Below, one piece after another: positions 2,664-8,359 of a DNA stretch of 9,751 nucleotides. Every line of letters begins with the position of its first letter. Position 1 is the first letter of the stretch. Made by a program: the position numbers and the translations under genes. Location of the stretch: IMG/VR virus record IMGVR_UViG_2802429241_000003; one strand, written 5' to 3'. The notes under the pieces were generated by a model. The model had not been told where the DNA came from and made no database searches. It saw only the letters and a program-made list of their open reading frames with translations. Source of the stretch: a virus (Duplodnaviria; Heunggongvirae; Uroviricota; Caudoviricetes).

Positions 2664-3320
2664 ATGAAAAGCAACGACGAGAACATCAAGAAAGAAATAG
2701 GTCTGCGCATTCAGACTCTACGGAAACAATCCGGCATGACTGCCGGAGATCTCCAGCAAGTCACTGGAATAGGCTTAAGCACCTTGCAGAACTATGAGGC
2801 CGGATTAAGACAACCATCTATACCTGCCATCAAGAAAATCGCGCACGCCCTGAAAGCATCAGCGCCTTATATCGCGTGCTTAACAGATAACCCGTTCCCA
2901 CCCCAGAATACTAACGCTCCTGTTATTCCTGGGCTTGTAGCTATAAAAAATGACATAGCATCGCACGCCGGAGAAAAGCCAGTGCTGGCGATAGAACAGG
3001 AGATTCTACGAAGCAAGAACATCAACCCATCGTCTCTGTCAGTTCTCCAGAGCAACGATGAGTTAATGTCACCAACAATATCCCCAGGCTCCCAAGTCCT
3101 GATTAATACAGACGATACAGAGATTCATGAGGGGATCTATGCCCTTGAAGACAGAAATGGCCTGGTTGTTTTGAGGCACTGTAGAGTCATACCGGGTGAC
3201 AATGCTGTTATGCTGTCAACCGAAAGGGATGCTGAAATGAACACTAAGCATCTGAATAACGAGGAATTTAAGCGTTATAAAGTTCTTGGCCGCGTAGTTA
3301 GTGTTGTCAACTGGTTATGA
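2664..3320 (+). CDS. CI-like phage repressor: N-terminal HTH_XRE domain plus C-terminal LexA/S24-peptidase-like domain
   Basis: 218-aa ORF. HTH segment LRKQSGMTAGDLQQVTGIGLSTLQNYEAG; C-terminal segment with M-S-P-T-I-S-P-G-S-QVLIN spacing typical of the S24 fold. Divergent from the cro-like gene across palindromic operators. Confidence 0.8.
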   Translation: MKSNDENIKKEIGLRIQTLRKQSGMTAGDLQQVTGIGLSTLQNYEAGLRQPSIPAIKKIAHALKASAPYIACLTDNPFPPQNTNAPVIPGLVAIKNDIASHAGEKPVLAIEQEILRSKNINPSSLSVLQSNDELMSPTISPGSQVLINTDDTEIHEGIYALEDRNGLVVLRHCRVIPGDNAVMLSTERDAEMNTKHLNNEEFKRYKVLGRVVSVVNWL

Positions 3321-3362: not shown

Positions 3363-3377
3363 ACCACATTTTGTGGT
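3363..3377. promoter_or_regulatory. Fourth operator copy (accacattttgtggt) between the repressor gene and the downstream 124-aa gene
   Basis: Perfect ACCAC-N5-GTGGT palindrome; TTGACA at 3382-3387 lies adjacent. Confidence 0.5.
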
Positions 3378-5104: not shown

Positions 5105-5128
5105 TAAAAAAGGCCCCCGAAGGGGCCT
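5105..5128 (-). terminator. Intrinsic terminator for the minus-strand small ORF
   Basis: On the minus strand: hairpin ggcccc-ttcg-ggggcc (7 bp with the flanking A-T pair) followed by TTTTTT (5105-5110); on the plus strand the hairpin lacks a downstream U-tract. Confidence 0.6.
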
Positions 5129-5133
5129 AATCG

Positions 5134-5256
5134 CTACTTGCTGCTAATGTTTATCGTCACATTCAGAGCGTTATCAGTAATCTTCCAACCCTCCCCATGT
5201 GGCGTAAACAAAGCTCCAGTAACAACGATAAAAATACACATACAGTATTTTTTCAT
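5134..5256 (-). CDS. 40-aa small hydrophobic protein, candidate type I toxin (MKKYCMCIFIVVTGALFTPHGEGWKITDNALNVTINISSK)
   Basis: Internal ATG of the 60-aa track ORF with AAGGG SD about 8 nt upstream; hydrophobic N-terminal stretch; strong terminator immediately after the stop; candidate -10 TATAAT (minus strand, 5411-5416) about 150 nt upstream. Confidence 0.35.
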   Translation of the reverse strand: MKKYCMCIFIVVTGALFTPHGEGWKITDNALNVTINISSK

Positions 5257-5320
5257 TGTATGGCCCTTACAGGCCGTTTCACGGCATCCCCACCGACGAA
5301 AATGACGCGAGAGCAAGCAC

Positions 5321-5340
5321 GCTGTTTGTGCCTGCGTGGT
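5321..5340. repeat. Copy A of a 20-bp direct repeat (gctgtttgtgcctgcgtggt); lies in the predicted 5' leader of the small-ORF mRNA, where it is read as its complement
   Basis: 19 of 20 identity with 5570-5589; flanking sequence shows a diverged duplication of about 80 bp (ctgaaag and gcgaatc shared). Confidence 0.6.
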
Positions 5341-5569
5341 ACGGCAAGTGGATAATCCTTTCCTGAAAGTCGGTGCCCGGTTGCGAATCGGCGAAAAGGC
5401 CCCAAGCCATATTATACGTCATCCCCTTCATAATGAAGGAATAAAAAACGCTTTTATTACATAGAATTACACGTAAATAAGTTAAAAACCTTCATTTTGC
5501 ATGAGCTAATGAGCTAAATTTTTTATATGAATAGTGGACTATTCACCTAAATTGGGTAAGAATGTAGTT

Positions 5570-5676: not shown

Positions 5677-6222
5677 CTACCACCGCCCTATTGATTCAAG
5701 TATTAATGAAGGTGAATCATTTGAATTATTCGATTTTGCACCGTTATCGACCCAATCTCTGTATGCTTCATCACAACAGTACCTTACAGCAGTTGGAATA
5801 ACAGGGATGCCGCCCCCAAATGAGAACCCCATTGAGCTTATGCTAATTCTGTCGGATGGCCTATTTCTCAATGCTTCAAATCCCTTGCTGTTGAAGTAAC
5901 TCAGCATCAGAGGCAAAAGGTTATCCTCGTCCTGACTGATTGTTCCAGGGAAAAAGTAGTAACCATAGCGATTAAATTCGGGGATCAGTTTTTCTACCAA
6001 CAACATGAAATTCATTGGGCTAATATTAAGGGCTGTGCAAGCACCAAAAAGGGCATCAACTGTTAATACAGACTGCCCGTTCTCTATCTTTGTCCATGCG
6101 TTTGGTGTTTTTCCGGCAGCTTGAGCCAGCACTCCTTGATGCACACCTCTTTCTAGCCTAAGCTCTTTTATGATCATTAGGTGGATTGTTGAAAAACATG
6201 AGTTTTTTGACGGATCAGACAT
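5677..6222 (-). CDS. HTH_XRE-domain protein with a C-terminal domain of unknown function (181 aa)
   Basis: ATG at 6222 with GGAG 7 nt upstream; N-terminal IIKELRLERGVHQGVLAQAAGKTPNAWTKIENGQS is a Cro/C1-type HTH; stop lies inside an 11-bp inverted repeat (5655-5665 and 5683-5693). Confidence 0.6.
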   Translation of the reverse strand: MSDPSKNSCFSTIHLMIIKELRLERGVHQGVLAQAAGKTPNAWTKIENGQSVLTVDALFGACTALNISPMNFMLLVEKLIPEFNRYGYYFFPGTISQDEDNLLPLMLSYFNSKGFEALRNRPSDRISISSMGFSFGGGIPVIPTAVRYCCDEAYRDWVDNGAKSNNSNDSPSLILESIGRW

Positions 6223-6406
6223 TTTTTAGCTCCATATAAAACTCTATCTTTGTTCTCAATTTTAACAAACTGCCCATCTTGGGAATGTGTTGTTCCTTGT
6301 GAGAACTATACATTCCCATTTCTGGTATATCAAGAAAATTAAAAGCTCGGCATTCAAACCCACGCTATGTGGTTGTCTCTGTTAAAATCCCGCCGTATTG
6401 ACATGA

Positions 6407-6505
6407 ATGCGCCATTGGTGGACACTTTCCGAGCCGTAGCAAAATCTACGGTCGGGATTGGCGTCCCGATTGCACAATGGCGCATACCGCGTTAGCGGTT
6501 TTTTT
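6407..6505 (+). ncRNA. Structured element: 11-bp long-range stem enclosing two adjacent 6-bp hairpins, followed at once by an intrinsic terminator; candidate leader/attenuator or small RNA
   Basis: Outer stem 6407-6417 aatgcgccattg pairs with 6475-6485 caatggcgcat; hairpins ccgtag-caaaat-ctacgg and tcggga-ttggcg-tcccga; terminator accgc-gtta-gcggt plus T7 (6486-6505). TTGACA at 6397-6402 lies just upstream. Confidence 0.3.
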
Positions 6506-6607
6506 ATGCGTAAAGCACTGCTACACCCAAATTATGGTGGGGCGTGCGGGGGCGGAGAAATCCGCGCCGGGTTTGTCATTGTGCCGGTTACGCCAACCCT
6601 GTACGTC

Positions 6608-6641
6608 TCACCACCATATTGATTGGCGTCATTGGTGGTGA
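6608..6641. promoter_or_regulatory. Inverted repeat TCACCACCA-N16-TGGTGGTGA in the promoter region of the antirepressor-like operon
   Basis: 9-bp perfect arms at 6608-6616 and 6633-6641; a third ATTGGTGG half-site at 6414-6421; lies 27-60 bp upstream of the ATG at 6668. Confidence 0.4.
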
Positions 6642-6667
6642 TAGTTCCTTTAATCGGAGATATCACA

Positions 6668-6859
6668 ATGACAAACCTACCCCATGACTATTACGTCAAC
6701 CTCGTAAAGATCCTTCTCAAGAAAGCCTCATACGCCGATAAATTCCGCCTGGCTGAAATCATAGAGCGCGAAGCTATGCGCATCGCCAGCAACGATAACG
6801 CTGTTTCTGACGCAAAAATCTCCCTCGTAACCAAAGTAGTTATGGGAGGTGCAAAATGA
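6668..6859 (+). CDS. Hypothetical small protein (63 aa), translationally coupled to the downstream antirepressor-like gene
   Basis: ATG at 6668 with GGAGA SD 8 nt upstream; stop TGA overlaps the ATG of the next gene (ATGA at 6856-6859). Confidence 0.45.
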   Translation: MTNLPHDYYVNLVKILLKKASYADKFRLAEIIEREAMRIASNDNAVSDAKISLVTKVVMGGAK

Positions 6860-8124
6860 AAACGCTTCCGACCGTTAACACCCTACAGCCTATCCTGCAT
6901 AACCAAATCCCTGTCATTACTACCGAGTTACTGGCACAGCTTTACGGCGTATCTCCTGTACGCATTCGACAAAATCATCATGAGAATAAGGAACGCTTCA
7001 TTGAAGGTAAGCACTACTTCAAAATTGAAGGTAACGAACTTCGAGAGTTAAAGCACAAAGTGACTCAAGATAATGATGTGAAGAACAAAAACTCTTTAAG
7101 AGATTCAGTTAATGACGCCCCCTCTAAAAGAGAGAGCGTCGAGCACAGAGTAGTTTTAAACTACTCTGTTAACCACAAGGTAACTAAAAGTCACTCTGTG
7201 AAAATCGCCCGTAACGTTCGCTCCCTCATTCTCTGGACAGAACGCGGGGCTGCACGTCACGCTAAAATGCTCGAAACTAACCAAGCGTGGGATGTGTTCG
7301 AACGGCTGGAAGACTGCTACTTCAACCAGAACGCGCAAACGGCCGCGACCGTTACCGTCTCGCCAAACAATGCTCGTGAGGTTGTCGATACGCTCAACGC
7401 CAAACCGATGTTTTACATTAAGGTGTGCAACAACGAGCCACTCACAACCTCAGCCGATGTTGCCCAGGCATTCAGCACCACAAACAATTCCATCGTTATG
7501 GCCATCGATGCGCTACGCATTCCTCGCACGGCTGCGGCACGTCATTTCTTTAAAGAGCAACGACCGCTGGAAGGAAGCGACCGCGAAATAACAATCTATC
7601 GCATGACAAAAGACGGATTTACCTTGCTCATGGAAAGTATCGACGGTCCAGGCGTGAAGGATATCAAGCTGGCCTACATTGAAGCCTTTAACGCTATCAG
7701 CAGCGTGTTAAAAACACAGTACGAGCGCGATCTGGCTAAACGACTGTACCAGGAAAAAACGATTATCCGCGCGGCAACAGAGCATAATCGGCTATTAACG
7801 GAACCGAACTACAGGAAGGAACTAATCAAGGAGTTTGACAAGGCAACAGGGAAAACCAAAGCGACGCTAAATCTGCCAGCAATGACTCAGGAAAATGTGA
7901 TATCAGCCTTACTTCTTGATCTGCTCAGAAACGCCAGAGCACTTATCAGCTTTGACGAAAACCTGAATCCTCAGCTCAAGCTACTACCACCGACAGGCAA
8001 AGTAGTCGACCAAGCTGATCACAACAGCATACTCAGCGTTCTGGATGCAAACCTGCCAGCCAGGACACTACAGGATCTGATAAAAACATGTGCTGATAAG
8101 CTGGCACAGAAAAGCAGACCATAA
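6856..8124 (+). CDS. Antirepressor-like phage regulatory protein: N-terminal ORF6N-like domain, central Rha-like domain, unassigned C-terminal region
   Basis: 422 aa. N-terminal ITTELLAQLYGVSPVRIRQNHHENKERF...ILWTERGAARHAKMLETNQAWDVFERLEDCYF resembles ORF6N; central RMTKDGFTLLMESIDGPGVKDIKLAYIEAFNAI resembles the Rha family (TRDGF..L.M.F.G.....K..YI.AFN). Strong GGGAGG SD 6 nt upstream. Confidence 0.75.
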   Translation: MKTLPTVNTLQPILHNQIPVITTELLAQLYGVSPVRIRQNHHENKERFIEGKHYFKIEGNELRELKHKVTQDNDVKNKNSLRDSVNDAPSKRESVEHRVVLNYSVNHKVTKSHSVKIARNVRSLILWTERGAARHAKMLETNQAWDVFERLEDCYFNQNAQTAATVTVSPNNAREVVDTLNAKPMFYIKVCNNEPLTTSADVAQAFSTTNNSIVMAIDALRIPRTAAARHFFKEQRPLEGSDREITIYRMTKDGFTLLMESIDGPGVKDIKLAYIEAFNAISSVLKTQYERDLAKRLYQEKTIIRAATEHNRLLTEPNYRKELIKEFDKATGKTKATLNLPAMTQENVISALLLDLLRNARALISFDENLNPQLKLLPPTGKVVDQADHNSILSVLDANLPARTLQDLIKTCADKLAQKSRP

Positions 8125-8128
8125 CTAC

Positions 8129-8160
8129 AAGGGGCTACGGCCCCTTACTCTTTTCTCTCT
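8129..8160 (+). terminator. Intrinsic terminator after the 422-aa gene
   Basis: Hairpin aaggggc-tacg-gcccctt followed by a pyrimidine/U-rich tract (actcttttctctct). Confidence 0.6.
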
Positions 8161-8359
8161 TATCAACGCCAGAGACGTTCTGAAAATCCTTTCGAATAGC
8201 GTCAGCATCACGCGCCAAGCCCATACTGGAACGCGTCGCCATATGACGAAAATGATCAACTGCCGGAAACAAAGAAATAATGGACCCAATAGCTTGCAGC
8301 AAACTCGCTTTTCTACGCATCATAATTCCACCATAACCGATAACCACCCTTCAGACACA

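Follow-up and report, generated by a model that had tools for sequence, protein, structure and literature searches.

The stretch of DNA analyzed here, 9,751 nucleotides (nt) of the Caudoviricetes record IMGVR_UViG_2802429241_000003 and hereafter called the window, contains two overlapping open reading frames (ORFs) whose control and function are the subject of this work. The window is 96 to 98% identical to ~48-kb circular, non-mobilizable plasmids of Escherichia coli, Escherichia albertii, and Salmonella, one of them from E. coli ATCC 25922. Three Yersinia phage genomes (vB_YpM_39, 41, and 44) match the window as well. Because it matches both circular plasmids and these phage genomes, the source element is identified by sequence as a ~48-kb Escherichia/Salmonella phage-plasmid. 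Assignment to the pSLy3 group of phage-plasmids was considered and found to be wrong, as that group is part of the ~100-kb SSU5 supergroup.

Both ORFs are on the plus strand. The first (6668 to 6859) encodes a protein of 63 amino acids (aa), matches phrog_7886, and is the positional analogue of icd in phage P1. The second (6856 to 8124) encodes a 422-aa putative antirepressor, defined by Pfam, PHROGs, and an alignment of its alleles, with an ORF6N domain, a Rha domain, and a C-terminal domain (CTD). The two overlap by the sequence ATGA at 6856 to 6859, as a preliminary description of the locus had read it. A Shine-Dalgarno (SD) sequence, GGAG, is present at 6656 to 6659 for the 63-aa ORF, whose AUG is at 6668 to 6670, and GGAGG is present at 6845 to 6849, 6 nt before the ATG of the 422-aa ORF. 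The ATGA overlap recurs in sister elements (designated L001, L003, L063, and L132), the ratio of nonsynonymous to synonymous polymorphism (pN/pS) of the 63-aa ORF is low (0.07 to 0.15 at a pS of ~0.45, versus 0.32 for the 422-aa ORF), and more than 120 alleles of the 422-aa protein are found among the matches listed; both ORFs are therefore genes and not chance ORFs, and both are under selection at the protein level. From the ATGA geometry, we predict that their translation is coupled. Directly after the stop codon of the 422-aa ORF, terminator prediction called a GC-rich hairpin followed by a T-rich tract (8129 to 8146, plus strand, also called on the minus strand), which is the likely terminator of the operon.

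Upstream of the 63-aa ORF, and bounded on the other side by a divergent gene for a helix-turn-helix (HTH) protein, matches to the Rfam families isrK and C4, along with a near-cutoff match to c4-a1b1, are all found on the plus strand. The isrK and C4 elements (6433 to 6618) were absent from the preliminary description, and they appear to be the actual control device. An isrK-type leader RNA (6433 to 6505; RF01394, 67.3 bits, cutoff 50) contains two sites, a1 (TTGGCGT, 6458 to 6464) and b1 (GCACAATG, 6472 to 6479), that were recognized by their complementarity to the a' and b' segments of C4. This leader ends in an intrinsic terminator, with a stem at 6486 to 6499 and then a T run. The C4 antisense RNA follows at 6530 to 6618 (RF01695, 72.3 bits, cutoff 45, full-length match). 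By itself, C4 folds as the Rfam consensus (-46.2 kcal/mol), with b' formed by the 13-nt loop of hairpin 2 plus flanking bases (6570 to 6583) and a' formed by an unpaired segment (6590 to 6596). Two further target sites lie beyond C4: a2 (TTGGCGT, 6623 to 6629), which is complementary to a', and b2 (CACAATGACAAACC, 6664 to 6677), which spans the AUG of the 63-aa ORF and is a perfect 14-nt complement of b'. The promoter of the operon is predicted by homology, with a -35 element TTGACA (6399 to 6404), a 17-nt spacer, and a -10 element GACACT (6422 to 6427) on the plus strand. It aligns column for column with the P1 promoter P1c4/P51b (TTGACC-17-TATAGT) and also with TTGATT-17-TACACT of lambdoid isrK-type cassettes.

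Concerted variation of C4 and its target sites

The perfect match between b' and b2 is the longest complement to C4 anywhere in the window, and complementarity analysis gave 8 nt for b'-b1 and 7 nt each for a'-a1 and a'-a2. Duplex energies are -23.3 kcal/mol for b'-b2 and -16.2 kcal/mol for b'-b1. When ~2000 random 25-mers from the window were paired with C4, the mean was -8.4 and the best -18.4 kcal/mol, so that none reached the value for b2. Moreover, the minimum free energy fold of the full leader (6430 to 6700) has b' paired with b2 in cis (z = -4.9). Because b' pairs with b2 both in the leader fold and as a duplex, the start codon of the 63-aa ORF is predicted to be sequestered with C4 in cis or in trans.

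Comparative evidence comes from an exact search for the shared C4 stem core, which returned 27 distinct C4 variants with differing loops, 26 of them in distinct cassettes with enough flanking sequence to be counted. At their own locus, a' and a2 form a perfect 7-mer in 26/26 cassettes, and b' and b2 match over at least 8 nt in 24/26; among cross-locus pairs with different loops, matches of at least 7 nt (a'-a2) and at least 8 nt (b'-b2) occur in only 0.5% and 1.6%, respectively. The a1 and b1 sites follow the same changes as a2 and b2 across cassettes. Within the phage-plasmid family of the window, there are two a types (TTGGCGT and TTGGAAC) and three b types in four combinations, where a1, a', and a2 always switch jointly, as do b1, b', and b2, and where b2 overlaps the AUG of the 63-aa ORF in every member that carries this ORF. 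The concerted changes extend to more distant elements: in L135, a' UAAGGCUAA is matched by a2 TTAGCCT, and in L136, a' UAGUGAGAU is matched by a2 ATCTCACT. The closest plasmids (L001 and L003) differ from the window in both a and b type, and such variation among close plasmids looks like the heteroimmunity pattern of P1 and P7. The a/b loop-target combinations would thus predict which of these phage-plasmids are heteroimmune, which bears on phage-plasmid co-residence, superinfection, and induction in clinical Enterobacteriaceae.

The closest known system is the immI operon of P1, whose annotated layout is a1, b1, c4, a2, b2, icd, and ant1, with an icd/ant1 overlap of 4 nt (48688 to 48691) and with icd recorded as "apparently required for expression of ant." Searched against Rfam, the P1 leader gives matches to isrK, C4, and c4-a1b1 in the order seen in the window, with C4 at 68.8 bits. 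The window shares with P1 and P7 immI the order and spacing of promoter, a1/b1, terminator-like hairpin, C4, a2/b2, small ORF, and ATGA overlap, as well as the concerted variation of loops and targets. With P1, it additionally shares the 7-nt a sites, the 8-nt b1, and a 14-nt offset from a1 to b1, and positions 6395 to 6690 are 76% identical to P1; the -35 element, the a1/b1 scaffold, the hairpin, and the C4 stems align, whereas loops and targets differ. The host elements are also alike, as both are plasmid prophages with ParA and a Ref nuclease. Nevertheless, the two operons differ in several respects. In the window, b2 covers 14 nt over the AUG, whereas P1 b2 is 8 nt long and is located 11 to 18 nt before the AUG; the primary repressor is a lambda CI-like protein with an HTH and a degenerate S24-like domain instead of P1 C1; the 63-aa protein is unrelated to Icd; and the 422-aa protein has an ORF6N-Rha-CTD architecture, while P1 Ant1 has a KilAC/ANT domain (PF03374). 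In P1, Ant1/Ant2 bind C1, and the operon is repressed both by C1 and by C4 RNA (PMC8198154). An in-frame, Ant2-like second product is not evident for the 422-aa ORF.

We propose, with a probability of roughly 0.6, that the locus is a P1-type immI (secondary immunity/anti-immunity) operon on a phage-plasmid, with the two ORFs as its protein cargo. The RNA gate appears to be of the known P1 type, and the proteins that it carries seem unrelated to those of P1 and new as cargo. For the RNA mechanism, sequence and covariation provide good support; the functions of the proteins we infer.

According to this proposal, transcription would begin at the promoter near 6399 to 6427, with the isrK-type terminator (6505) expected to end most transcripts and yield a short leader RNA with a1 and b1. 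Transcripts that read through would hold C4, a2, b2, the 63-aa ORF, and the 422-aa ORF. The a' and b' segments of C4 would then pair with a2 and b2, either within one unprocessed transcript (in cis) or as a processed RNA acting in trans, and the 14-bp b'-b2 duplex, by covering the AUG of the 63-aa ORF, would block ribosome binding. Because the start of the 422-aa ORF lies in the stop codon of the 63-aa ORF, the former would be translated only along with the latter. By analogy to P1, Rho would also tend to end transcription early when the mRNA is left untranslated; Biere, Citron, and Schuster reportedly found in 1992 that blocked icd translation leads to Rho-dependent termination, and Hartmann et al. 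are said to have found in 1995 that P1 C4 is processed by RNase P. During lysogeny, C4 would keep the antirepressor-like protein from being made. Both proteins would appear if C4 were missing, if it were mismatched (as with a superinfecting or co-resident element of another a/b type), or if it were titrated, for which the a1/b1 leader RNA is a candidate; the ORF6N-Rha-CTD protein might then bind and inactivate a non-cleavable CI-like repressor (2664 to 3320), favoring lytic growth.

The 63-aa and 422-aa proteins

The 63-aa protein matches only phrog_7886, a family of unknown function, and among 50,697 phage records it was found in just three Yersinia phages of the same lineage. Against P1 Icd, BLASTP gave no alignment at an E value of 100 or below. 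In sister elements whose version of the 422-aa protein is only ~45 to 55% identical, the 63-aa protein is still 89 to 94% identical. Its strong constraint shows that it is a genuine protein and more than a leader for coupling, and it is a lineage-restricted orphan. Candidate roles include an Icd-like host effector, a partner of the larger protein, or a small antirepressor. The arrangement of the small ORF varies in the more distant element L135, where it precedes a Rha-CTD gene without overlap.

For the 422-aa protein, profile searches bore out the two domains named in the preliminary description. ORF6N was found at residues 12 to 138 (nt 6889 to 7269; PF10543, 71.2 bits, cutoff 27.8) and Rha at residues 197 to 281 (nt 7444 to 7698; Phage_pRha, PF09669, 46.9 bits, cutoff 29.9). 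The insertion described in the first domain is also present, as the ORF6N match covers 84 profile positions (3 to 86) in 127 residues and thus includes ~43 extra residues; it is not a fixed feature, however, but a repeat whose copy number varies between alleles (hypervariable region at nt ~7051 to 7203, from the allele alignment). Relative to the 380-aa allele of the E. coli ATCC 25922 plasmid, the window protein has 42 additional residues at ~66 to 77 and 87 to 116. The more than 120 listed alleles share at least 79% identity, range from 376 to 422 aa, and, among the matches listed, occur almost exclusively on ~45- to 50-kb contigs; their length differences are accounted for by the ORF6N insertion, a variable-copy repeat of ~10 aa. 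For instance, allele P0016 contains LKISLRDLQS four times, and allele P0036 contains LRVTLSHSQN followed by LRVALNYSQN, while the copies in the window have diverged. At the DNA level, Tandem Repeats Finder detected no tandem repeat under the insertion in the window, and the repeat is seen only in the peptides of other alleles. In an AlphaFold2 (AF2) model, the predicted local distance difference test (pLDDT) score is ~80 for ORF6N and Rha and ~30 for the insertion, which is accordingly predicted to be disordered.

The protein as a whole falls into phrog_8244 (function unknown). Among the PHROG matches of its N-terminal and central parts are several families with an anti-repressor annotation, and some of its PHROG matches are annotated "transcriptional regulator." ORF6N is the sole widely shared module, reaching 57% identity with proteins annotated Ant in Shiga toxin (Stx) and Shigella phages. 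With P1 Ant1, there is no similarity (best BLASTP E value, 0.23). RefSeq/PGAP annotates a 238-aa "Rha family transcriptional regulator" from an internal Met185 (P0001; L003 [pHN68-3], 7367 to 7790). We rejected this product as probably an annotation artifact, because the full 380-aa ORF with its ATGA overlap is intact there and Met185 lacks an SD sequence.

The ~140-aa CTD (residues 285 to 422, nt 7708 to 8121) was correctly described as having no assignment, as evidenced by the lack of a match to these residues in Pfam, PDB sequences, or PADLOC. PADLOC gave weak matches only, to the ORF6N part of the protein; Pfam searches of eight CTD members returned only sub-threshold noise; and a sequence search for relatives with solved structures found none for the full protein, with a best E value of 2 for the CTD profile. 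The domain is rare, having seven matches in an exhaustive HMMER search of 1.84 billion representatives. P0002 (a chimeric assembly), P0007, and P0008 (a repeat artifact) were dropped as CTD homologs. Genuine matches always follow a Rha domain, in proteins of the form Rha-CTD (240 to 253 aa) or ORF6N-Rha-CTD (381 to 383 aa), and share the core V.S.LL.DLLR..RA..SF...L.P...P. In the structure prediction that had been suggested for this region, AF2 runs of the full protein and of the CTD alone agree on a secondary structure of a long helix, further helices, a beta-hairpin, and two helices, but confidence is low (pLDDT 45 to 60; predicted template modeling score, 0.22 to 0.35). Our guess is that the CTD serves in repressor binding or oligomerization. 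The 63-aa orphan and this Rha-linked CTD stand out as an uncharacterized protein and an uncharacterized domain under clear selection. At the start of the CTD, a patch at 7700 to 7900 exists in two alleles, such that relatives are either ~99% or ~80% identical, with flanks of 95 to 100%; this suggests recombination between diverged CTD versions.

The cargo of other C4 cassettes places these proteins in context. Among the cassettes compared here, C4 precedes at least four cargo types: icd with a KilAC-type Ant (P1-like), the 63-aa ORF with ORF6N-Rha-CTD (the phage-plasmid lineage of the window), a stand-alone Rha protein of 181 to 205 aa (lambdoid phages), and a protein with Bro-N and P22_AR_C domains. 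Every cargo class found belongs to an antirepressor-type family. The C4 antisense cassette of P1 is, then, a portable gate, joined by recombination to four or more unrelated kinds of antirepressor-type cargo. This association supports an antirepressor role for the 422-aa protein, short of proving it.

The primary repressor and competing explanations

The CI-like primary repressor (2664 to 3320, plus strand) has an HTH domain (Pfam HTH_3, 43 bits; phrog_4) and a degenerate S24-like domain with a Peptidase_S24 score of 18.4 bits, under the cutoff of 23.3. A MAFFT alignment puts a Ser opposite the nucleophile of LexA and CI and places no Lys, while a motif-based alignment (DELMSPTISPGSQVLI versus the S24 family motif, GDSMxPTIxxGDxVLV) puts a Leu at the Ser position. 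Non-catalytic S24-like motifs are conserved in the 66%-identical CI homolog of sister element L132. The S24-like domain appears to be catalytically dead, and a non-cleavable repressor, as had been supposed, is plausible in view of the sub-cutoff score and the lack of a catalytic Lys in either alignment; the Ser position is ambiguous.

Operators of the form ACCAC-N5-GTGGT flank the repressor gene, at 2509 and 2612 in its control region (2489 to 2664) and at 3363 to 3377 just downstream. A pattern search identified a one-mismatch copy, the palindrome CCCACGCTATGTGGT, at 6359 to 6373, 26 nt upstream of the operon -35 element. In total, the window has 4 such sites versus 0.18 expected by chance, and the copy at 6359 to 6373 is conserved in all close relatives. 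It may have a counterpart in P1 immI, where a copy of the primary-repressor operator, Oc4, is found upstream of the operon. The control region of the repressor gene additionally contains an imperfect palindrome at 2530.

Other phages provide further comparisons. In N15, as reportedly described by Ravin et al. in 1999, the anti-immunity region consists of a small processed CA RNA, icd, and antA/antB; the RNA is said to be of the P4 type and to cause transcription termination, and the region is said to carry an icd homolog. Like the source element of the window, N15 is a plasmid prophage, and its antirepressor operon is reportedly silenced by a small processed RNA encoded at the operon start, much as is proposed here. 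The P4-type terminating RNA and the icd homolog are features of N15.

In Gifsy-1, isrK, orf45, and anrP are transcribed from the isrK promoter, the stop codon of orf45 overlaps the anrP AUG (AUGA), and anrP translation requires translation of orf45 (PMC4825925). Read-through RNA is translationally inactive, and short IsrK activates in trans; through this cassette, related to the one described here, the antirepressor-like AnrP is controlled, which in turn affects antQ (PMC4825925). Gifsy-1 and the window therefore have in common an isrK-type leader with an intrinsic terminator, an AUGA overlap of a small ORF with an antirepressor-like gene, and a long transcript that is inactive in translation through long-range pairing, which for the window is a predicted fold. 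They differ in that the window has a separate, protein-coding 63-aa ORF after C4, while orf45 starts ~107 nt from the transcription start, in the place of C4. Because of this start position, and because the nucleotides but not the amino acids of orf45 are conserved and orf45 yields a processed RNA of ~80 nt (PMC4825925), orf45 probably coincides with a C4-type RNA. We tentatively place AnrP in the single-domain Rha cargo class behind lambdoid cassettes. The window itself contains an ORF (6534 to 6641, plus strand) that has its AUG within the conserved C4 5' stem (AAUUAUGG) and runs through C4 and a2; this AUG is ~102 nt from the predicted transcription start, and the first AUG of Gifsy-1 orf45 is at position 107.

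Several observations weigh against the immI proposal. The predicted -10 element (GACACT) is weak, which is why a simple consensus scan did not call the promoter, so that its assignment rests on homology. The c4-a1b1 match (6420 to 6472) scores 41.7 bits, under its cutoff of 46.7. Element L136 has C4 directly before an ORF6N-Rha-CTD gene, with b2 over the SD sequence and no small ORF, so that expression does not inherently depend on the 63-aa ORF. Since the two proteins lack homology to those of P1, an antirepressor activity and its target are drawn from context, and ORF6N and Rha are DNA-binding-type modules that are reused in other roles. RNA processing, Rho polarity, and the derepressing signal are proposed by analogy. 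The operator copy at 6359 to 6373 does not overlap the promoter core and is absent from sister element L132. Also, the CI-like repressor is at least 99% identical in all relatives, while HTH181 (the divergent HTH gene), the C4 loops, the ORF6N segment, and the 7700-to-7900 patch are mosaic; with an invariant CI and a hypervariable ORF6N segment, no co-variation links the 422-aa protein to CI, and allele association is therefore uninformative on the antirepressor target.

The preliminary description regarded the gene pair as the likely induction trigger, and a version of this idea in which LexA or another global signal turns the operon on, with the product inactivating a non-cleavable repressor, has models in N15 AntC and 186 Tum. 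The apparent non-cleavability of the CI-like repressor and the antirepressor-type cargo, as evidenced by PHROG and Ant matches, fit such a trigger, for which the LexA-controlled, trans-acting antirepressors of Gifsy phages set a precedent of antirepressor-driven induction (PMC3121763). The likeness to the Gifsy case is an antirepressor that inactivates a non-cleavable repressor, an activity inferred here; the difference is antisense-RNA control and no LexA box. Upstream of the operon, CTGT-N8-ACAG was not found at one mismatch or fewer, and the five hits elsewhere in the window are at chance level (2.6 expected). Moreover, the terminator and antisense RNA behind the promoter hold the genes off, the cassette being built to do so in a lysogen, and the homologous P1 module is an immunity/anti-immunity determinant and not an SOS trigger. 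We consider SOS-linked induction improbable, the least likely of the explanations weighed here, and the earlier trigger claim gives way to P1-type anti-immunity or heteroimmunity control, which is better supported. The antirepressor reading is now supported, beyond the domain names, by the context of the C4 cassette and by the antirepressor-type cargo elsewhere. For the immI proposal, candidate signals that would relieve C4 control are a mismatched C4 on superinfection (anti-immunity, as in P1 versus P7) or titration by the a1/b1 leader RNA.

Two further explanations would assign the genes to different kinds of regulation. If the 422-aa protein were a DNA-binding transcription factor (TF), acting on lytic or host genes, C4 would merely be gating a regulator; two DNA-binding-type modules (a KilA-N-like ORF6N and Rha), the NCBI name "Rha family transcriptional regulator" for relatives, and the "transcriptional regulator" annotation of some PHROG matches are consistent with this. 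Such family names are annotation only, however, and the studied C4/isrK cargoes (P1 Ant and Gifsy-1 AnrP via antQ) have been described as antirepressors (PMC8198154, PMC4825925), and all other cargo classes found carry antirepressor-type domains. We judge this explanation unlikely. Quite unlikely, too, is an SOS-independent module of the kind found in plasmid-like phages, where small ORFs (smORFs) partnered with divergently transcribed TFs act on cI (PMC10432266). HTH181 would then sense a signal and activate the operon, with the 63-aa protein as a small antirepressor and the 422-aa protein as an accessory. Like those TF-smORF modules, the locus is a variable one in a plasmid-like phage, near par genes, with a strongly conserved small orphan protein without domains beside an adjoining divergent HTH gene. 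Unlike in those modules, the HTH gene is dispensable among relatives, and the small ORF is C4-gated and coupled to a large multidomain protein. HTH181 was rejected as an obligatory activator, given its absence from several near-identical relatives in which promoter, C4, and both ORFs are intact; an inverted repeat near HTH181 overlaps the promoter of that gene and not that of the operon, and C4 control already explains the leader.

An extension of the immI proposal is possible, albeit tentative. The locus may be an SOS-independent switch of three RNAs, namely, an isrK-like a1/b1 decoy, C4, and the a2/b2 target, in which a combinatorial a/b "barcode" decides which co-resident or superinfecting phage-plasmids silence one another. 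The 63-aa orphan would be an effector of its own, either a new small antirepressor or a cell-division/growth inhibitor that is analogous but unrelated to Icd, and the repeat loop and CTD would be repressor-recognition surfaces. If true, this would imply trans-acting cross-talk between prophages via the ORF6N loop and the Rha-linked CTD.

Neighboring genes and the phage-plasmid lineage

The phage-plasmids to which the window belongs form an abundant, unstudied lineage of ~48-kb elements in E. coli, Salmonella, E. albertii, and Shigella, with one member in the reference strain ATCC 25922. In the window, the neighborhood includes the CI-like repressor facing a divergent early operon, ParA, a Ref-family nuclease, a ryfA-like RNA, and the divergent HTH gene. 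The latter, HTH181 (5677 to 6222, minus strand), encodes a 181-aa HTH protein and was classed as an accessory gene by Pfam and the comparison of relatives. Some relatives carry it, but the near-identical L124, L125, L126, and L130, in which the operon is intact, have no match to it. ORF inspection of L126 indicated that the gene is simply absent, and in L128 the flank is too short for its presence to be judged. The inverted repeat at this gene has 16-nt arms (6280 to 6295 and 6303 to 6318), overlaps the predicted HTH181 promoter, and is probably an autoregulatory site of HTH181.

Short matches connect the window to lambdoid prophages. Positions 7195 to 7329, the conserved end of ORF6N, are 88 to 89% identical to antB/"antirepressor" genes of lambdoid Stx and Shigella phages, and Stx2c phages have, at a different locus, a segment ~80% identical to the isrK/C4 region (6450 to 6630). 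At the sequence level, these matches are evidence of module exchange between phage-plasmids and lambdoid prophages.

Directly 3' of the 422-aa gene is a small convergent ORF (8125 to 8347, minus strand) that shares the hairpin at 8129 to 8146; it is annotated as a 62-aa hypothetical protein in relatives and has no Pfam match. Finally, a full-length match to ryfA RNA (5106 to 5404, minus strand; 136 bits, cutoff 80) adjoins the partition genes, and sister element L135 has a ryfA match as well (164 bits). Since ryfA encodes the small membrane toxin TimP (PMC7667032), this locus may be a type I toxin-antitoxin addiction module of the phage-plasmid. A candidate hydrophobic peptide, beginning MKKYCMCIFIVVTGALF, is encoded at the ryfA locus within an ORF at 5134 to 5316 (minus strand).

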